Of a stretch of DNA of 8,521 nt, positions 835-8,521 are shown piece after piece. The notes beneath the pieces were generated by a model that searched no databases, had not been told where the DNA came from, and saw nothing but the letters and a program-made list of their open reading frames with translations. This DNA is from a virus (lineage: Duplodnaviria > Heunggongvirae > Uroviricota > Caudoviricetes): the IMG/VR virus record IMGVR_UViG_2617270966_000007. One strand, 5' to 3'. How positions within the stretch are numbered: the first letter of the stretch is position 1; the number at the start of each line of letters is the position of its first letter. A program made the translations under genes and the position numbers.

Positions 835-990
835 TTACTCCTCAGGTTCGTAAGCTGTGAAGACAGCGACCTCCGTCTGGCCGGTTCGGATTCGTACCTC
901 GCAGAGGTCTTTCCTCGTTACCAGTGCCGTCACCATGACGGTTAAACAGATGACGATCAGGGCGATTAGCATCGCCTTTTGCTGCTTCAT
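835..990 (-). CDS. hok: Hok/Gef-family membrane toxin (type I toxin-antitoxin toxin), 51 aa, HokD/RelF-like
   Basis: Translation MKQQKAMLIALIVICLTVMVTALVTRKDLCEVRIRTGQTEVAVFTAYEPEE has the Hok signature (single transmembrane helix then LTRKDLCEVRIRTGQTEVAVF) and closely matches HokD as recalled. SD AAGGAG lies about 9 nt upstream of the ATG at 990-988. Confidence 0.9.
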   Translation of the reverse strand: MKQQKAMLIALIVICLTVMVTALVTRKDLCEVRIRTGQTEVAVFTAYEPEE

Positions 991-1047
991 AGCCTGCTTC
1001 TCCTTGCCTTTCGGCACGTAAGAGGCTAACCTACGTGTGTAGAGCAT
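835..1047 (-). CDS. Mok-like in-frame upstream extension of hok (70 codons)
   Basis: ORF-track frame begins MLYTRRLASYVPKGKEKQA and continues in frame into Hok. Chromosomal mok reading frames (for example MokC) are N-terminally extended, in-frame versions of hok. Whether this one is translated is unknown. Confidence 0.4.
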   Translation of the reverse strand: MLYTRRLASYVPKGKEKQAMKQQKAMLIALIVICLTVMVTALVTRKDLCEVRIRTGQTEVAVFTAYEPEE

Positions 1048-1470
1048 AGATATGGCCTCAGATTAATGTTAAGCGTCTTGCAGGACGCGTAATGTTAACT
1101 GGGGCTTTTCTCTATCTGCCTTTGGTGTTCATGCCTGAGACAGATAGCCTCAAGCACCCGCAGCCATTCTACTTAACTCCCGTCACCTCGCCAATATGAA
1201 ATCAATCAGAAAGGCGATCCATAAGAACAACAGCAAGGCAATAAATTGCCATTACAGCAGCAATAGCCAGCGCACATTTGAGAACCAGCACCACAACCTC
1301 CTGTATTGGACGTACACCAGTCCTGATAAATATGAGGCTGTCTCGTCAGTGATTCAATACAACTATTGGGTATAGTTTCTGTGATTTTGTTCTGTAGAAA
1401 TGGAACACAACAACCAGTCACCACCAGCACTTCTTTAAATACGCCAAGTCCGACGCAAGCTAACCTTCTA

Positions 1471-1494
1471 GTCCGCTTTGAGCGAAAAGCGGAC
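1471..1494. repeat. Palindromic hairpin GTCCGCTTT-GAGCGA-AAAGCGGAC (copy 1 of 2)
   Basis: 9-bp perfect stem with 6-nt loop, about 60 nt downstream of the HAD stop. Shares the stem GTCCGCTT/AAGCGGAC with the element at 2937-2960. No U-tract on either strand. Confidence 0.5.
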
Positions 1495-1554
1495 GTTGGA
1501 AGTTTAAAACTCGCGAACTACTCAGCGTCCATTGATGCGTATTGTGTAACGTGA

Positions 1555-2199
1555 TTAACCACAGATGATATTGAAACGTTCTCCGGAAATCTTGACCATA
1601 ATGTCAGACAGCTCGCTGACGGCATGGGCTTCAGATGATCCCAGAGCGTCAGGCTGAACAGCTATTACCGAAGCTCCACTTGCCAGCCCTGCTTTTATAC
1701 CCGCAGATGCATCCTCAAATACCACGCATTCACCAGGCTCAAGGCCCAAAGCCAAAGCTGCTTTGATGTAACCCTCGGGACTTGGTTTTCCCGTCATTAC
1801 ATCTTCTGCACACACCATTACTATGGGTAAGGGGAGATTAGCCGCTTTCATCCTGTTTTCGGCAAGCATTCTGCCTGCAGAAGTAACAAGTGCCCAGCTA
1901 TCCGGTGGCAGTTTTGATAAGAGTGCAGCGGCCCCTTTTACTTCAGTAACGCCTTCTGTCGTGTTGATTTCAACCTCTTCGAGTGAGGCCGCGATTTTAT
2001 TGGTTTTCTCACCTGCACCAATAAAATGCGTCAGTGTATCAATCGTTTGCCGCCCGTGTGCGTAAGCAATCACAGCCTGAGTATCAAGACCGTATTCTGC
2101 ACAAAAATCTCTCCAGACGCTTTCCACTACGGCTGTTGAATCAACCAGCGTACCGTCCATATCGAATAAAAAACCCTTAGCGTTGAATATCATTGCCAT
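1555..2199 (-). CDS. HAD-superfamily hydrolase, subfamily IA (sugar-phosphatase / beta-phosphoglucomutase-like)
   Basis: HAD motif I FDMDGTLVDS near the N-terminus, motif III lysine in GKPSPEGY, motif IV FEDASAGIKAGLASG. The second ATG (2193) has better SD spacing (AGGA, about 6 nt) and may be the true start. Lies 24-30 nt downstream of the Nudix stop, so likely co-transcribed. Confidence 0.85.
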   Translation of the reverse strand: MAMIFNAKGFLFDMDGTLVDSTAVVESVWRDFCAEYGLDTQAVIAYAHGRQTIDTLTHFIGAGEKTNKIAASLEEVEINTTEGVTEVKGAAALLSKLPPDSWALVTSAGRMLAENRMKAANLPLPIVMVCAEDVMTGKPSPEGYIKAALALGLEPGECVVFEDASAGIKAGLASGASVIAVQPDALGSSEAHAVSELSDIMVKISGERFNIICG

Positions 2200-2222
2200 T
2201 CCTTAATGGTTGCAGAAGAAAG

Positions 2223-2861
2223 TTAATCAAACCATGTTTTTTCATCACCTTTCGCTACTCTCAGGCTGACAGCAATCTGCTCAGGCACAATTCTTGAAAG
2301 CGACAATTCAGGCAGGTCGTTGACATCAAAAAAATCAGCATCGAGTGACTCATGGCTGATTGACAGGCTGCCACCTACTTCTTCACAGAGAAAAATCAGC
2401 TTGTAAACATGCCAGGGTAAAGGCGGATGGCCGTGAAGATTACGATCCCAAACTCCCAATAGTTTAGTCACTCTGACTTTTAATCCGGTTTCTTCTTCGA
2501 CCTCTCGACGCACAGCTTCAGAAGGTGTATCTCCAACATCTGCCCATCCGCCAGGAAGACTCCATAATCCATCTGCAGCCTCTTTCACCATCAGAATACG
2601 ATTATTACGCAGGATAAACGCACGCACATCTGTTTTGGGCGTCGCGTAACCCGTTTCCGATACATGAAACAAATCATTGCGGCTAATATCAAACTGCGAA
2701 CTCAGCAGTCCAGCGGCAATTTCACGCAAGGCTTCATAGCGTTCCTTGTCAAAGACGTCTTTTGAATAGGTCAGGCCTGACTGCGCGAGGGCATTTAGTC
2801 TCTGGGCAACAAAAATAAGCTTTTCTTGGGTCAACACTTCAGACATGTTTTTCATCTTCAT
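2223..2861 (-). CDS. Nudix hydrolase with an N-terminal extension domain (ADP-ribose pyrophosphatase-like architecture)
   Basis: Nudix box GWADVGDTPSEAVRREVEEETGL (residues 105-127, plus 2481-2549) fits G-x5-(E/D)-x7-REVxEExGL. About 100 aa of N-terminal domain precede it. Start is ambiguous among ATGs at 2861, 2855 and 2846; none has a strong SD. Confidence 0.85.
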   Translation of the reverse strand: MKMKNMSEVLTQEKLIFVAQRLNALAQSGLTYSKDVFDKERYEALREIAAGLLSSQFDISRNDLFHVSETGYATPKTDVRAFILRNNRILMVKEAADGLWSLPGGWADVGDTPSEAVRREVEEETGLKVRVTKLLGVWDRNLHGHPPLPWHVYKLIFLCEEVGGSLSISHESLDADFFDVNDLPELSLSRIVPEQIAVSLRVAKGDEKTWFD

Positions 2862-2936
2862 TTATGTATTCAGAGTTCCTGTTAAGGATACTGCTCAATT
2901 CAATGAAGAATAACAAATGCATCTGGCACCTGCTAT

Positions 2937-2960
2937 GTCCGCTTCTGGCACAAAGCGGAC
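2937..2960. repeat. Palindromic hairpin GTCCGCTT-CTGGCACA-AAGCGGAC (copy 2 of 2)
   Basis: 8-bp perfect stem with 8-nt loop, about 68 nt downstream of the 141-aa gene stop and upstream of the Nudix gene. Same stem as 1471-1494. Confidence 0.5.
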
Positions 2961-3028: not shown

Positions 3029-3451
3029 TCACTTCAATAAATACCGAACATCACCCTGATAAAACGACAATATGCGCTGCATAACTTCACTCTTCCGGCA
3101 CTCGCGACAGATTATGTTCATACGCCTGTCGTAGCGGCGTATTTCTCCGTCGGGTAATGTCCAGATAAGGTCAGGATCAACCACAGATGGTTTCTTCAGA
3201 TTTGCCCTTGAGAGTTTTTTGCGGGCGTTTTGCCAGTCCTTACGCGCCTGTTCAGACGGGAATAACCCGTAAACAGAGTTGTATACATCGCCACTGGCAA
3301 CCAGCTCTCTGGCGAGAACACTCATCAGATATCTTGTCGCACCTGTCTTGGCTTCCAGTTGCCGCAACGTCTCGCGACCGCTCAGACGTACAAGTTCAAC
3401 AACCTGCCCTTTAATTTTTTCCCGCTCTTCTTGTGTAAATACTTTTGCCAT
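3029..3451 (-). CDS. Hypothetical phage protein (140 aa), translationally coupled to the upstream 256-aa gene
   Basis: ATG at 3451-3449 (MAKVFTQEEREK...) preceded by GGAGG at about 7 nt. The ORF-track start at 3466 is a TTG inside the coupling region. Basic C-terminal half (RRYDRRMNIICRECRK). No family recognised. Confidence 0.6.
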   Translation of the reverse strand: MAKVFTQEEREKIKGQVVELVRLSGRETLRQLEAKTGATRYLMSVLARELVASGDVYNSVYGLFPSEQARKDWQNARKKLSRANLKKPSVVDPDLIWTLPDGEIRRYDRRMNIICRECRKSEVMQRILSFYQGDVRYLLK

Positions 3452-3466
3452 AAGCGCCTCCGGCAA

Positions 3467-4237
3467 TCACTTTTCCGATACAACACGGCGGGAAGAATCA
3501 GTAATCTGTCGAACAATATCCCGGTGCTTGTTCAGCTCCCGCAGCGCGGCGCAGACTCGCTCCCACTTCTGAACATCACTTTTCGCCCTGCGCAGCGCCA
3601 GGTTTGCCCTGCGAAGGGACGGAAAAATCAGCTCATCTGCTTGCGTTTCGGTAAACGATGGCAACGGCTGCACAATGTCCGCCACAGTTTCTGTTTTAAT
3701 TTCTTCCTGTGTTGCGGCTTCCCGGACTGGTAACGCAGCACCTGCTGGCTGAGGAAAGGCCTTACCATCACTTTCCGTTACCAGCGCGGCTTTCGGCTCT
3801 GCTGGTAAATTATCGCCCGGCATGCAGTAACGAAATTTACCGTTCTGATTAACGCGTGCCAGCCGCCCCGTTGCGGTTACCACCGCCAGCGTGGAAGCAA
3901 CCTTGCGAGTACTGACACCGAACTTACCCGCCAGTTCCTCACACGTTTTAGCCCCATCCTGACCGATAAACTCAATCATCATGTCTGCGGTAACTTTTTG
4001 TTCGACCTCCCCGGTCAGCATATCCTGTGCTTCAGATTTTACTGGCCGCTCTTCGGTTACCCGGGATTCACCTTCGCCAGCCAGAAACCAGGTGTGACCA
4101 GTTTTATCAACGACGCCATTTCTTTTGAGTTCCCACAGCTCGTTGACAGCCTCTTCACGACTGATTCCAAGGCGAGCTGCCACCACATGTGAAGAGGCTT
4201 TTTTCAGTGCTTTCAGTGCGTCAGATACGGTTTCCAT
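3467..4237 (-). CDS. Hypothetical phage protein (256 aa) with two tandem winged-helix-like DNA-binding segments
   Basis: Two segments resembling wHTH domains (SSHVVAARLGISREEAVNELWELKRNGVV and KTCEELAGKFGVSTRKVASTLAVVTATGRLARV). GGAGG SD about 8 nt before the ATG at 4237. Starts 21 nt after the DnaC-like stop. Confidence 0.65.
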   Translation of the reverse strand: METVSDALKALKKASSHVVAARLGISREEAVNELWELKRNGVVDKTGHTWFLAGEGESRVTEERPVKSEAQDMLTGEVEQKVTADMMIEFIGQDGAKTCEELAGKFGVSTRKVASTLAVVTATGRLARVNQNGKFRYCMPGDNLPAEPKAALVTESDGKAFPQPAGAALPVREAATQEEIKTETVADIVQPLPSFTETQADELIFPSLRRANLALRRAKSDVQKWERVCAALRELNKHRDIVRQITDSSRRVVSEK

Positions 4238-4258: not shown

Positions 4259-5005
4259 TTACTTCACAACCCTCATATTGCTGACATTTGGACGCCAGCT
4301 ATCCCAGTTAAACGTCACCCATCGACCACCGTTCATGGTCATGCGGTCCATAATCCTCTCACCAAGAAGCGTACTCATTGCGGCATGATTCAGGTTTGTT
4401 AACATCCCGACACTGCACAGTGATGCTGTCCGGCGATCAATTATCTGGTGCAATACCACCTGCTCGTTTTTCGTCTCCCGCTGAACGCCTATTTCATCCA
4501 GGACCAGCAAATCAACCCCGCAAAGCTCCTGTAAAAATTTTTCCCCGGATTTGCCGTTGTCGTAGCTGTCATGCAACACGCTCATGACGTCAGACACGGT
4601 GACGATAATCACGCTGCGCCCCTTCACCATCAGCCGGTTGCCCATCGCCGCTGCAAGGTGATTTTTCCCGGTGCCGGTTTTACCGCTGAACACAAAATTC
4701 GTGCACCCGGTCATCAGTTCGTCAGCTATGGATTTGGCCTGGCTCAGCGCGTATTTTTGCCCGTCGTTCTGCACCTGATAATTTGCAAACGAGCATTTGC
4801 TGTGCAGAGGCTGGATGCCCGAACGATTCAGGATTTTTTCCACCCGCAACTGGCGATTCTGGCGGTTAATCTCCTCGCTGCGTTTTCGTCCTTCAGCAAG
4901 TTGCCATTCCCGCCACTCCTCCACCGTCCGGTACGGTGGAACCGACCCCTGTGGTGCAAGTCTGCGAATACGTTCAAGAACCCCAACTGCCGCAATGTTT
5001 TTCAT
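4259..5005 (-). CDS. ydaV: DnaC-like helicase loader / IstB-type AAA+ ATPase (phage replication protein, YdaV-like)
   Basis: P-loop FSGKTGTGKNHLAAAMG and Walker B DLLVLDEIG. Length 248 aa. Starts 7 nt after the O-like gene stop with a G-rich SD. Symbol assigned by synteny and length match to the Rac prophage ydaU-ydaV pair. Confidence 0.85.
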   Translation of the reverse strand: MKNIAAVGVLERIRRLAPQGSVPPYRTVEEWREWQLAEGRKRSEEINRQNRQLRVEKILNRSGIQPLHSKCSFANYQVQNDGQKYALSQAKSIADELMTGCTNFVFSGKTGTGKNHLAAAMGNRLMVKGRSVIIVTVSDVMSVLHDSYDNGKSGEKFLQELCGVDLLVLDEIGVQRETKNEQVVLHQIIDRRTASLCSVGMLTNLNHAAMSTLLGERIMDRMTMNGGRWVTFNWDSWRPNVSNMRVVK

Positions 5006-5011
5006 GACACG

Positions 5012-5974
5012 TCACCCCCTGAATCCCGGCGGTATTTCAGTGTCCGGTTCAGAAATGTGATTCACGCAACGCTGCGCAGGCGAACGCCCCAGGCGGATAA
5101 CCAGTTCATCCCATTTTTCCCGGAGTTTTGCCGGACTCATGATGTTTTTTACCCAGAACGAATCCCGCTGGAGACGCCCAAACATTTCACAAATTTGTCT
5201 GTGAGTTCTGCCATCCAGCATCCGCATTGTGCGAACGTCATTGGCCCATGCTGTCCAGTTGGGTTCTTTCGGTCTAGTGATCTCGCCATCATAGCTGGCC
5301 GCCTGCTCGTAAAGACTCACGATTCGTCCCCAGATCCACTGTGCGCACACCAAATCTTCCTGACTTCCCCACTGGCGTTTTTTCGCACTGAACACAACCG
5401 CGTCAGGGTGTCGGGTTAAAAAATCCTGTTCAGCCGTCTGCGGGTCCGGTTGCGAAGCGTCCGGACAAGAAGATCTTTTATCTGACGGTTCAGGTTTTAA
5501 TACTGACGGATCGGGGTCAATCATCGCCCCCCTAATCGGCAGTTTTTTATCAACAGTTGATCCATCAAAATTTGACGGGTCAACCGTTGAGGGGGCAAAA
5601 TTTGACGGGTCAACTGTTAACGGGTCATTTTTTGCCGGGCTAATTTTTCTTTTCGGTTTATATGACTCACGCGCCGCCGCCGCAGCTGCTTCGAGTTTTT
5701 CCACATTAAGCCGATAGATATTGCTTACATTACGCCCACCGACCTTACGCTCTTCCTTCGTCAGCCAGCCCTCTTTCGCCAGTTCTGCAATAGCCGATTT
5801 CACTGTGGATTCACTTCTTGCACCGATCTGACGCCGGATAGTTTCAATGGCAGGCCATGACACACCCTCGTCATTGCTGTAGTCTACAAGACGGGCCATA
5901 ACCGCCACCCTGGATAAGATCATGCCGGTGAAGGCGCACCCTTCCCAGACAAGACCATGAAGCTTGCTGCTCAT
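5012..5974 (-). CDS. Phage replication initiator (O-like / replisome organiser, YdaU-like) with N-terminal wHTH and an internal TVDPSNF repeat linker
   Basis: The ORF track starts at a GTG (5989); the first ATG is at 5974 (MSSKLHGLVWEG...) with a GGGGG SD. N-terminal HTH-like segment (VSWPAIETIRRQIGARSESTVKSAIAELAKEGWL). The central region encodes PLTVDPSNFAPSTVDPSNFDGSTVD from direct DNA repeats. Sits immediately upstream of the DnaC-like gene. Confidence 0.8.
   Translation of the reverse strand: MSSKLHGLVWEGCAFTGMILSRVAVMARLVDYSNDEGVSWPAIETIRRQIGARSESTVKSAIAELAKEGWLTKEERKVGGRNVSNIYRLNVEKLEAAAAAARESYKPKRKISPAKNDPLTVDPSNFAPSTVDPSNFDGSTVDKKLPIRGAMIDPDPSVLKPEPSDKRSSCPDASQPDPQTAEQDFLTRHPDAVVFSAKKRQWGSQEDLVCAQWIWGRIVSLYEQAASYDGEITRPKEPNWTAWANDVRTMRMLDGRTHRQICEMFGRLQRDSFWVKNIMSPAKLREKWDELVIRLGRSPAQRCVNHISEPDTEIPPGFRG
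5544..5621. repeat. Iteron-like direct repeats (30-bp period) with adjacent AT-rich stretch inside the O-like gene: putative replication origin
   Basis: CAAAATTTGACGGGTCAACCGTTGA (5566-5590) and CAAAATTTGACGGGTCAACTGTTAA (5596-5620), plus a partial third copy TCAACAGTTGA (5550-5560). Each contains a TCAAC-N-GTTGA inverted core. Followed by the AT-rich run cattttttgccgggctaatttttcttttcggtttatatga (5626-5665). Confidence 0.45.
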
Positions 5975-5996
5975 AAAACCCCCGAACACCGTGCTT

Positions 5997-6756: not shown

Positions 6757-6824
6757 ATATTAGGCTTAGCCTAATGCAATTGTCAATAGGCTAAGCCTAA
6801 TCCATCGAGAGTAGGGATTGCCTA
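6757..6824. promoter_or_regulatory. OR-like operator cluster (three 13-bp operators) with divergent PR (minus strand) and candidate PRM (plus strand)
   Basis: Operators TAGGCTTAGCCTA (6761-6773), TAGGCTAAGCCTA (6787-6799), TAGGGATTGCCTA (6812-6824), centres 26 and 25 bp apart. PR on the minus strand: -35 TTGACA (6786-6781), 18-bp spacer, -10 TAATAT (6762-6757). Candidate PRM: -35 TTGCCT (6819-6824), -10 GACTAT (6842-6847), which would start transcription at about the repressor ATG. Confidence 0.6.
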
Positions 6825-6853: not shown

Positions 6854-7330
6854 ATGCTTAGTGGTAAAGACTTAGGCCGAGCGATAGAGCAGGCCATTAA
6901 CAAAAAAATTGCATCAGGAGCCGTCAAATCAAAGGCGGAAATCGCACGTCATTTCAAAGTCCAACCACCATCAATCCATGACTGGATTAAGAAAGGTTCG
7001 ATAAGTAAAGACAAACTTCCAGAACTATGGCGTTTCTTTTCTGATGTGGTTGGTCCAGAGCATTGGGGGCTTAACGAATACCCCATACCAACCCCATCCA
7101 CTTCAGATACAAAAAGTGAACTTTTAGACATAAACAGCCTTTATCAAGCCGCCTCTGATGAAAAAAGAGCAATTGTGGCTTTCCTCTTATCTGGAAATGC
7201 TACGGAGCCTAGTTGGGTTGATCATGACGTTCGCGCCTACATTGCCGCAATGGAAATGAAGGTAGCTAACTATCTGAAAAATCAAGAATCAAAACGGAAA
7301 AGCCAGAACATCACCAAGACAGGAACTTAA
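6854..7330 (+). CDS. CI-type prophage repressor (XRE-family HTH, 158 aa; RacR-like by position and length)
   Basis: N-terminal HTH (SKAEIARHFKVQPPSIHDWIKKG). Divergent from the Cro-like gene across the operator cluster, and flanked on both sides by the same 13-bp palindromic operators. No obvious S24 peptidase Ser/Lys domain in the short C-terminal part. Confidence 0.8.
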   Translation: MLSGKDLGRAIEQAINKKIASGAVKSKAEIARHFKVQPPSIHDWIKKGSISKDKLPELWRFFSDVVGPEHWGLNEYPIPTPSTSDTKSELLDINSLYQAASDEKRAIVAFLLSGNATEPSWVDHDVRAYIAAMEMKVANYLKNQESKRKSQNITKTGT

Positions 7331-7366: not shown

Positions 7367-7425
7367 TAGTTAACTCCTACTACCTCTCCCACAAACCATC
7401 ACCTATTAGGTCGCGCCCAGATTAT

Positions 7426-7467
7426 TAGGCATAGCCTATTGACAAGTAATTAGGCATTTCCTATAGT
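7426..7467 (+). promoter_or_regulatory. PL-like early promoter with two operators (OL-like)
   Basis: -35 TTGACA (7439-7444), 17-bp spacer, -10 TATAGT (7462-7467). Operators TAGGCATAGCCTA (7426-7438, abutting the -35) and TAGGCATTTCCTA (7451-7463, covering spacer and -10). Mirror image of the PR arrangement. Confidence 0.6.
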
Positions 7468-8259: not shown

Positions 8260-8521
8260 GGTAGTGACTCCAACTTACTGATAGTGTTTTATGTTCAGAT
8301 AATGCCCGATGACCTTGTCATGCAGCTCCACCGATTTTGAGAACGACAGCGACTTCCGTCCCAGCCTTGCCAGATGTTGTCTCAGATTCAGATTATGTCG
8401 CTCAATGCGCTGAGTGTAACGCTTGCTGATAACGTGCAGCTTTCCCTTCAGGCGTGATTCATACAGCGGCCAGCCATCCGTCATCCATACCACGACCTCA
8501 AAGGCCGACAGCAGGCTCAGA
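8260..8521 (-). mobile_element. IS1 insertion sequence, partial (right end with terminal inverted repeat; continues beyond window)
   Basis: Terminal inverted repeat GGTAGTGACTCCAACTTACTGATAG starts at 8260 and resembles the IS1 IR as recalled. The interior encodes the InsB C-terminus on the minus strand. Confidence 0.9.
8275..8521 (-). CDS. insB: IS1 transposase InsB, C-terminal part (CDS continues beyond the window edge)
   Basis: Translation ...[71 protein letters not shown] matches the IS1 InsB C-terminus as recalled. The stop codon lies inside the terminal IR. Confidence 0.9.

Follow-up and report, generated by a model that had tools for sequence, protein, structure and literature searches.

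A two-gene Nudix-HAD cassette between two palindromic sites in a lambdoid prophage, and its joints in three phage backbones

Between the replication genes and the hok/sok locus of a lambdoid prophage lie two enzyme genes, for a Nudix hydrolase and a HAD phosphatase, with a palindrome at either end. The locus raises the question of how such a pair enters a phage genome and what it may do there. The prophage is represented by the IMG/VR record IMGVR_UViG_2617270966_000007 (Caudoviricetes), a stretch of 8,521 nucleotides (nt) that is called the window throughout. The list of open reading frames (ORFs) and Pfam searches identify it as the early-right region of a lambdoid prophage, transcribed from the minus strand, and in a nucleotide search of 5426 complete Escherichia coli genomes three chromosomes, those of strains MLI121, MLI114 and 600029, match it at 100%. 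An interpretation made earlier from the letters of the window, here referred to as the sequence-only reading, had described a compact co-directional pair between the replication module and hok. This description holds: the neighbours are as stated, and the gap between the two genes is 23 nt as listed, or 29 nt with the HAD gene starting at 2193. It had further proposed a horizontally acquired cassette bounded by two copies of one palindrome, and had named hydrolysis of ADP-ribose-derived or nucleotide immune signals, depletion of a nucleotide pool and sanitising of nucleotides as compatible roles of the enzymes. The features of the cassette are, with protein lengths in amino acids (aa):

1471-1494, site A, left joint of the cassette, GTCCGCTT TGAGCGAA AAGCGGAC, spacer T-GAGCGA-A
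1555-2199, minus strand, HAD-IA phosphatase, YfbT/GPP1-like sugar or polyol phosphatase, 214 aa as listed
2223-2861, minus strand, Nudix pyrophosphohydrolase of the Nudix_N / CDP-Chase / UDP-Xase subfamily, 212 aa as listed
2862-2936, minus strand, leader between site B and the Nudix start, partly conserved in the 84%-identical Nudix cassette of locus L248
2937-2960, site B, right joint of the cassette, GTCCGCTT CTGGCACA AAGCGGAC, spacer C-TGGCAC-A

The cassette in lambdoid, P2-like and 186-like backbones

Sequence comparison strongly supports the view that positions 1471-2960 form a separate mobile unit of two cargo genes, set in a hotspot for cargo in the lambdoid prophage. In a megablast search of phage genomes, window positions 1470-2960 were recovered from palindrome to palindrome, at 99.3% identity (query 71-1561), in the P2-like phages P24C9 and 10W. 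In P24C9 the cassette is located between the tail-fibre assembly gene G and the sheath gene FI, which is the Z/fun locus of P2. At least 12 further loci, in three kinds of backbone, carry it among the IMG/VR matches listed. The pair recurs at the equivalent lambdoid position, where the flank that carries it comes in two variants. In the 186-like backbone, with an early region encoding Int, CI, CII, Dam, replication protein A and a DinI-like protein, the cassette directly follows the DinI-like gene. Over the three backbones the identity of the cassette is 98-100%, and both frames and the catalytic motifs are intact in every copy examined. The plasmid database contained no copy.

The cassette is present in ~19 of the 5426 E. 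coli genomes. The lambdoid flanks occur in 1288-1588 of them, and the homology there ends at the inner edges of the palindromes; on the side of the DUF977 gene it stops at site B in more than 1000 E. coli genomes. With near-identical copies in P2-like and also 186-like phages, and with homology that breaks inside the palindromes, the proposal of a horizontally acquired, palindrome-bounded cassette is strongly supported and extended. Nor is the pair a set of core housekeeping genes, given its low frequency in E. coli. Chromosomal homologues of the Nudix protein with ~60-75% identity were found by homologue search in Cedecea, Leclercia, Pantoea, Kluyvera, Enterobacter and Sodalis; those of ~70% identity in Cedecea and Leclercia stand among ordinary metabolic genes, without a HAD gene and without palindromes. 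Homologues of the HAD protein with ~60% identity likewise stand alone among metabolic genes. One cassette in three backbones amounts to a natural experiment, in which the junctions fall within 6 nt of two 24-base-pair (bp) sites. The value of the cassette lies in these joints, revealed by its three-backbone distribution, more than in the two enzymes.

The palindromic sites, their junctions and their cargos

Each site consists of an 8-bp arm, an 8-nt spacer and a second 8-bp arm. The arms, GTCCGCTT and AAGCGGAC, are exact in both window sites; the pattern GTCCGCTT-N8-AAGCGGAC occurs twice in the window compared with 0.00 times expected from 200 shuffles, and folding gives a stable DNA hairpin at both positions (z -3.4 to -5.5). 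The sequence-only reading had seen the same palindrome on both sides. As far as the arms are concerned this is correct, as they are equal and exact at 1471-1494 and 2937-2960, but the spacers distinguish two types of site with different invariant centres. At least 120 loci in IMG/VR match the pattern, and among the matches listed the spacers fall into a class A, (T/A)GAGCGA(A/G/T), and a class B, (C/T/G/A)TGGCAC(A/G/T). In the sites collected, the central six spacer bases are invariant within each class, while the first and last bases vary. As a pattern of 16 specified bases is expected to yield ~140 chance matches in a genome collection of 596 Gb, only clustered hits and conserved centres were used there.

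Most changes in the arms affect one arm. Compensatory changes were seen in one of 45 A sites and three of 48 B sites, all at stem position 8; hence the sequence is conserved, and not merely the pairing. With the spacers read as above, the cargo among the matches listed is always positioned between A on the left and B on the right, and tandem A-cargo-B units are joined by B-A linkers of 9-18 nt. A B-like 30-mer is found in 3604 of the 5426 E. coli genomes, with a median of one copy per genome and a maximum of six. No Rfam family covers the A/B hairpins, the scan of the window yielding only sok and a sub-threshold isrK, and a literature search with the palindrome sequence returned primers only and no relevant paper.

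The joints could be mapped by exchanging either the backbone or the cargo in the comparison. Comparison of the three backbones that carry the Nudix-HAD cassette shows no difference in the centre or inner arm of either site, whereas the outer arm differs. The lambdoid backbone has GTCCGCTT as the A outer arm, where the P2-like one has GTCTGCTT with G as the next spacer base and the 186-like one has CTCCGCTG; as the B outer arm the lambdoid backbone has AAGCGGAC, and the P2-like copy, which keeps the inner arm and the centre, has GAGCGGAC. Conversely, ten cargos in the lambdoid backbone leave the A outer arm and the adjacent spacer base constant (10/10), the inner base and arm differing between cargos, and for eight cargos the B outer base is constant in 10/10 cases and the outer arm in 9/10. 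A 272-bp remnant in strain A20 has kept the A outer arm and the centre and diverges right after the centre. The P2-like and lambdoid backbones have only the 24-bp sites in common at the junctions. From these alignments the outer arm and outer base are assigned to the backbone and the inner arm to the cargo; as the outer arm follows the backbone and the inner arm follows the cargo, the boundary is placed inside the invariant 6-nt centre. A further arrangement is present in L248, where the 84%-identical Nudix gene is the only one between two B sites in direct orientation, beside an A..B unit. Two direct B sites are the product expected when a circle with one B site integrates.

The same sites enclose many other genes. 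Among the IMG/VR matches listed, at least 20 unrelated cargos were found between A and B sites, with identities judged by eye from the N-terminal sequences. The types include DarT-like proteins with a macro-domain protein, SIR2-like with a deaminase, DUF262 with HEPN-like, acetyltransferases with regulators, SDR with LysR, and glyoxalase-like proteins. The cargos that resemble defence genes have a low GC content of 0.33-0.37 (L030, L031, L060, L028, L070 and L064); this set comprises DarT-like/macro-domain proteins, a SIR2-like protein with adenosine-deaminase-like and ITPase-like proteins, DUF262/HEPN-like proteins and several large uncharacterised proteins. In phage Evi, an acetyltransferase unit lies between both sites, at a lambdoid position equal to that of the window. 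In the Qin prophage of E. coli K-12 MG1655 (locus L259), an A-like and a B site at 2513-2536 and 3504-3527 surround flxA/ydfV. This unit is situated between the replication-gene remnants ydfX/ydfW and relBE-hokD, in an orientation to the backbone opposite to that in the window. By these sites, K-12 therefore carries a copy of the hotspot.

In P2, degenerate B and A sites are found around the gene at Z/fun, and in 90 phage records the similarity to the end of P2 gene G extends no further than query 248-270, i.e. the B site. The inverted repeats of the P2 Z region are annotated in GenBank AJ512676-AJ512685 (Nilsson, Karlsson and Haggard-Ljungquist 2004, Mol Biol Evol 21:1). In AJ512676, a 'left inverted repeat' spans 3-115 and the right repeat 1942-2032, and their inner ends are located exactly at sites B and A. 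The title of the 2004 paper credits the variability of the Z region to site-specific recombination. As the flanking repeats were annotated in these records, the joints are not new for P2. By its location between G and FI, the presence of both sites and the coincidence with the repeat ends, the P24C9 cassette is a cargo insert of the P2 Z region.

The Z/fun locus corresponds to hotspot 2 of Rousset et al. 2022 (PMC9122126), and in P24C9 and 10W it holds the identical Nudix-HAD cassette. Unlike P2, the window is a lambdoid prophage, which has the 24-bp sites in common with Z/fun but not the ~100-bp P2 repeats. The palindromes go unmentioned in Rousset 2022 (PMC9122126) and in a 2026 preprint (10.64898/2026.02.27.708500), a large survey of P2/P4 hotspots according to which the recombination process remains to be elucidated. 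In the literature searched, where Nilsson 2004 is represented by its title and sequence records and not by its text, the lambdoid hotspot with A/B sites, the transfer of one cassette across phage families, the two centre classes and the junction in the centre appear to be undescribed. Phage-borne hotspots are now regarded as important stores of bacterial defence genes and as places where these are traded, and the question of how their cargo is swapped becomes testable at such joints.

Taken together, the best explanation, which we regard as reasonably probable, combines a mobile cassette, site-specific exchange within the 6-nt centres, and a Nudix and a HAD enzyme that act on a nucleoside-diphosphate-X (NDP-X) compound. 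Cargo modules would swap between phages at A and B, with the crossover within the 6-nt centre; the outer arm would stay with the recipient phage and the inner arm would move with the cargo. We infer that A and B may be core-type sites of a conservative site-specific recombinase. The two sites would be unable to recombine with each other, which would permit replacement of the cargo without its deletion. On sequence grounds, the inverted arms, the overlap of 6-8 bp and the junction position fit the core sites of tyrosine recombinases (lox, FRT, att core). With recombinase-mediated cassette exchange at heterospecific lox/FRT sites and with integron cassettes, the A/B system shares the inverted arms, a conserved overlap, two centre classes, a central junction, tandem arrays and the single gene between direct B sites. 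Unlike lox or attC, A and B are found without an adjacent integrase gene or an identified recombinase, and other proteobacteria have their hairpin as a densely repeated chromosomal element.

Other candidate systems were compared with the sites. The ends of IS200/IS605 insertion sequences were set aside, as the A/B junctions lie at the palindrome centre; IS200/IS605 elements cut outside their hairpins. P2 Int and lambda-type Int seem unlikely catalysts, as their core sites are not known to be related. On reading the sequences, no GTTRRRY core of the R''/R' boxes of attC was seen in or beside the A/B sites. The B centre on the other strand, GTGCCA(A), appears to equal the 7-bp spacer of the sfx sites of the R64 shufflon, the substrate of the tyrosine recombinase Rci; the arms are unrelated, and the match is probably a coincidence. 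The PeSL 'mobile regulatory cassettes' of T4-type phages, attributed to Arbiol, Comeau and Krisch in 2010, reportedly consist of an early promoter and a stem-loop and act via homologous recombination. PeSL cassettes and the 'boundary sequences' or morons of lambdoid phages seem to resemble A/B in having short conserved stem-loops around variable accessory ORFs, which may promote the shuffling of modules. Unlike the PeSLs, the A/B cassette has no detected promoter, two types of site and a junction confined to 6 nt.

Several observations weigh against site-specific exchange at A and B. No candidate recombinase emerged that P2-like and lambdoid phages obviously have in common, and no integrase adjoins the sites in the window (Pfam) or in P2. 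The sites of Xer (dif), integrons (attC) and invertases (hix/gix) were also set aside, the A/B sequences not being known to resemble them. When both lambdoid flanks were joined as the query, no empty site was found among 1288 genomes, the closest being the 272-bp remnant; simple integration and excision is therefore not observed. P2's own old/tin hotspot has no recognisable A/B site. In addition, a genome-contig scan showed the 24-nt hairpin to be a dense intergenic repeat in Alphaproteobacteria (Pseudolabrys, Xanthobacteraceae, Hyphomicrobiales, Sphingomonas) and Xanthomonadales. The copies there consist of GTCCGCTT with TGGGTCAA, TGGGCCAA or TGTGCCAA, then AAGCGGAC, usually with AT on both sides; they follow ordinary chromosomal genes, are often in tandem with a period of 45 nt and match no Rfam family (L198, L233, L176, L151, L137 and others). 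Such a dense distribution, reminiscent of repetitive extragenic palindromes (REPs), would be less expected of a recombination site than of an element acting through its structure or at the RNA level, and it leaves room for short-homology recombination or a host enzyme such as gyrase.

The palindromes might then be REP-like structural or RNA elements (mRNA-stabilising hairpins, insulators, or sites of gyrase or other host proteins) that merely provide short homology, the swaps occurring by general, Red/RecT Rad52-type or topoisomerase-mediated illegitimate recombination. We consider this somewhat unlikely. It would account for the stable hairpins, for palindromes that have no linked recombinase gene, and for the occurrence of identical 24-mers, e.g. 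GTCCGCTT TGTGCCAA AAGCGGAC, in intergenic regions of Pseudolabrys, Xanthobacteraceae, Hyphomicrobiales and Xanthomonadales, often in the 45-nt tandem. The REPs of E. coli are gyrase sites and hotspots of illegitimate recombination, and the lambdoid flanks are alike over hundreds of bases, so that exchange among lambdoid phages would not require a dedicated site. However, the 6-nt centres are invariant and form two discrete classes while the spacer ends vary, and the arm changes are not compensatory. The boundary between backbone and cargo lies inside the centre in every informative comparison, and the P2-like and lambdoid junctions share the 24-bp sites alone. As regards REPs and REPINs mobilised by RAYT transposases, the A/B sites lack the GTAG head; they have high-copy intergenic relatives in other proteobacteria, with a median of one B-like site per E. 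coli genome.

Returning to site-specific exchange, a broader version of it is possible but tentative. A and B may be the sites of an unrecognised cassette-exchange system without a linked recombinase, which would move accessory and defence genes between lambdoid, P2-like and 186-like phages and enterobacterial chromosomal islands. Heterospecific sites would enforce replacement instead of loss, as a natural form of recombinase-mediated cassette exchange, and a site sequence that is old and shared with a REP-like family would point to a conserved host protein as the catalyst.

The enzyme pair and its possible roles

The domain assignments of the sequence-only reading, Nudix with Nudix_N and HAD-IA, are confirmed by Pfam scores well above the curated cutoffs and by the presence of the Nudix-box and HAD motif residues. 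For the Nudix protein the scores are 64 bits with Nudix_N PF12535 (cutoff 27) and 68.4 bits with NUDIX PF00293 (cutoff 21.1). Its Nudix box, read from the translation and from alignments with the structure homologues, is GGWADVGDTPSEAVRREVEEETGL; together with the PF00293 score it places the protein in the Nudix hydrolase superfamily. Relative to GX5EX7REUXEEXGU the box reads G-WADVG-D-TPSEAVR-REVEEETGL, with D replacing the first E as in CDP-Chase (GGWADVGYTPTEVAAKEVFEETG). The gene probably starts at 2846, which would give 207 aa as in its homologues. The closest solved structures are those of the Bacillus cereus CDP-Chase (3Q1P/6NCH, E 9e-50, residues 19-204). The UDP-X diphosphatase of Streptococcus pneumoniae, 4HFQ, matches with E 2e-37, and 3O8S, a structural-genomics entry labelled ADP-ribose pyrophosphatase, is also among the closest solved relatives.

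The CDP-Chase/UDP-Xase subfamily, with motif definitions taken from PMC3655063, is characterised by the N-terminal helical domain PF12535, by the motifs GLxYxxDxxDxER and LPxLS, and by proteins 200-210 aa long. The window protein has this domain and length and contains GLTYSKDVFDKERY, LPELS and the extended Nudix box. With CDP-Chase (3Q1P, 6NCH) and the UDP-X diphosphatase SP_1669 (4HFQ) it shares the Nudix_N plus Nudix architecture, the length of ~207 aa and the motifs; both of these proteins have an N-terminal helical domain and form asymmetric dimers. On these alignments the window protein is assigned to the CDP-Chase/UDP-Xase subfamily and not to the classical ADP-ribose pyrophosphatases. 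The Thermus thermophilus ADP-ribose pyrophosphatase (ADPRase) 1V8I matches it with E 3e-4, and the NCBIfam search gave sub-cutoff scores only, without an equivalog match to ADPRase of the NudF type (NudE 19 bits vs a cutoff of 169, NAD diphosphatase 28 vs 158). The name 'ADP-ribose pyrophosphatase YjhB' that some homologues bear is an automatic COG label.

CDP-Chase is a cytidine-diphosphate-choline (CDP-choline) pyrophosphatase, and the UDP-X diphosphatase cleaves the uridine-diphosphate (UDP) compounds UDP-MurNAc, UDP-MurNAc-L-Ala and UDP-glucose (PMC3655063). The emphasis that had been put on ADP-ribose and immune signals is not supported by these closest characterised relatives, which are pyrophosphatases of CDP-choline and UDP-X; speculation on the function is therefore redirected from ADP-ribose to pyrimidine NDP-X. 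The subfamily had been reported from Gram-positive bacteria only (PMC3655063). The members found here occur in enterobacterial phages and chromosomes, which extends the reach of the subfamily to enterobacterial phages, and the window copy is paired with a HAD phosphatase.

The HAD protein scores 79 bits with HAD_2 (cutoff 23.8) and 61 bits with Hydrolase (cutoff 26.4) in Pfam, and 59.8 bits with TIGR01509, HAD-SF-IA-v3, in NCBIfam (cutoff 29.4). Motifs I-IV are DMDGT, VTSAG, GKPSPEGY and FEDASAG. All of them align to the yeast glycerol-3-phosphatase 2QLT, which is the nearest solved structure (E 2e-22), and together with the HAD_2 and TIGR01509 scores they place the protein in HAD subfamily IA, of the C1 cap class. 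The best NCBIfam model is the sugar phosphatase PRK11587 (E 6e-56, 189.3 bits). All four motifs, the best model and the structure are thus shared with E. coli YfbT (HxpA) and yeast GPP1. As the 189.3 bits are below the curated cutoff of 282 for the YfbT/HxpA equivalog NF008610, the protein is a paralogue and not YfbT itself. Its gene likely starts at the second ATG, at 2193, which would give 212 aa, since AAGGA is found 6 nt upstream and the homologues have this length.

Diverged forms of the pair are present in two further contigs. In L252, the two genes are adjacent with the same spacing, the Nudix protein being 80% and the HAD protein 72% identical to those of the window, and no A/B sites are found there. 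A tyrosine recombinase gene of the Integrase_1 / Phage_int_SAM_2 family (L252 2906-3823) adjoins this pair immediately upstream; its product could be the integrase of some unrelated island, or else offer a clue to a recombinase for A/B sites. In L254, where the HAD protein is 84% identical to that of the window and the spacing of the pair is again the same, the unit runs from a B site through GGACT, Nudix and HAD to an A site, with another B site 9 nt on. The GGACT (gamma-glutamyl cyclotransferase-like) gene, at L254 3982-4317, precedes Nudix and HAD within this one B..A unit, and could be a third pathway member in some versions of the cassette.

By homology, the Nudix enzyme would split NDP-X into a nucleoside monophosphate (NMP) and phospho-X, a CDP- or UDP-linked substrate being likelier than ADP-ribose. 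The HAD enzyme would then dephosphorylate phospho-X or the NMP, rendering the hydrolysis irreversible. Sequential hydrolysis of NDP-X by the pair is plausible; of the two-step pyrophosphatase-phosphatase scheme proposed in the sequence-only reading the order of reactions is retained as a possibility, with some support from the adjacency kept at 72-84% identity. The relatives from which the substrates are deduced have only ~50% identity, and the pair is not obligatory, as the 84%-identical Nudix homologue and the chromosomal Nudix homologues come without a HAD gene. In PADLOC-DB v2, the Nudix domain matched the candidate PDC-S07 only (E 7e-10) and the HAD protein nothing, and neither protein matched a validated anti-phage system. 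These points also count against the combined explanation given above.

A consensus scan detected no sigma-70-type promoter at its threshold in the leader or inside the cassette, although weak or non-sigma-70 promoters could escape it. At 2936-2910 there is only a weak terminator-like hairpin, and the scan found no intrinsic terminator after the HAD gene or inside the cassette. The promoter and terminator of its own that define a moron were thus not detected by consensus scan. In 3/3 contexts the cassette is co-oriented with the upstream phage operon, i.e. the lambdoid early-right operon, the P2 late V operon, before its terminator, and the 186-like early operon. Three cases can give no more than a hint of expression during lytic development. 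The Nudix and HAD genes probably share a transcript, produced by read-through out of the phage operon beside them.

The Nudix-phosphatase pair is a candidate means of altering pools of nucleotide sugars or nucleotides, and the data do not discriminate between a role in counter-defence, a role in defence through the depletion of a pool, and a metabolic passenger. In counter-defence during lytic growth, the Nudix enzyme would destroy a pyrophosphate-bearing immune signal or toxic nucleotide (ADP-ribose-derived signals of Thoeris, ADP-ribose itself, or compounds of the ddhCTP type) and the HAD enzyme would dephosphorylate the product. The co-orientation with lytic operons in three contexts and the lack of a detectable promoter of its own are consistent with this, as is the presence of the cassette in viable, isolated P2-like phages. 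The preference of the subfamily for pyrimidine NDP-X (PMC3655063) might suit substrates like ddhCTP. Yet no homology to a characterised anti-defence protein was seen, no search aimed at it having been made. The closest relatives act on CDP-choline and UDP-MurNAc, the ~70%-identical chromosomal homologues in Cedecea and Leclercia are found amid ordinary metabolic genes, and the cassette is rare (~19/5426 genomes). We judge this role to be quite improbable.

A role in prophage defence or lysogenic conversion appears to us just as doubtful. Here the pair would deplete a nucleotide-sugar or modified-nucleotide pool on which superinfecting phages or surface receptors depend, for example UDP-glucose needed for the glucosylation of T-even DNA, or envelope precursors. 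The related UDP-Xase hydrolyses UDP-glucose and UDP-MurNAc (PMC3655063), the Z/fun locus is annotated as an anti-T5 locus in P2, and hotspots elsewhere hold DarT/macro, SIR2, DUF262-HEPN and other defence-like cargo; the weak match to PDC-S07 points in the same direction. The HAD protein, however, has no PADLOC match, the scan revealed no promoter from which a lysogen could express the pair, and the hotspots also contain metabolic and regulatory cargo (acetyltransferases, SDR with a LysR regulator, glyoxalase). Constitutive hydrolysis of envelope precursors would presumably be costly as well.

The genes may instead be ordinary enterobacterial metabolic genes that were captured by the hotspot system as neutral passengers without a phage-related role, which we hold to be unlikely. 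The chromosomal Nudix homologues in Cedecea, Leclercia, Pantoea, Kluyvera and others, the ~60%-identical HAD homologues amid metabolic genes and the many hotspot cargos that look metabolic agree with such an origin. A neutral passenger is harder to reconcile with frames and catalytic motifs that are intact in all copies examined, with 98-100% identity over three backbones, and with the persistence of the pair at 72-84% identity. The size of a phage genome is, moreover, limited.

Backbone genes of the window

The backbone on both sides of the cassette comprises the following genes and loci:

6854-7330, plus strand, CI-like repressor gene, followed at descending coordinates by cro-like and cII-like genes
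5012-5989, O-like replication gene with iterons, upstream of the cassette
4259-5005, DnaC/IstB-like loader gene, upstream of the cassette
3467-4237, DUF1627 gene, upstream of the cassette
3029-3466, minus strand, DUF977 gene (Pfam PF06163), backbone gene bordering the hotspot towards the replication genes
835-1159, minus strand, hok/sok locus (type I toxin-antitoxin), backbone flank of the hotspot opposite the replication genes
985-1159, sok (Rfam, 114.7 bits)
835-1047, minus strand, hok (Pfam HOK_GEF)

Inside the O-like gene, at 5550-5639, four iteron-like repeats of 15-30 nt are observed (TCAACNGTTGA... / CAAAATTTGACGGG), which presumably form the phage origin. Copies of a 16-18-nt palindrome, ATTAGGCTTAGCCTAAT, are located at 6759-6801 and 7424-7464 on either side of the CI-like gene and look like operators of the OR and OL type. 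Just downstream of hok, at 745-826 on the minus strand, Rfam gives a sub-threshold match to the Hfq-binding small RNA isrK (27 bits vs a gathering score of 50, E 0.054). At the right end of the window, the translation of a minus-strand ORF at 8275-8493 looks by eye like the C-terminal part of an IS1 transposase, which suggests that IS1 interrupts the prophage there.

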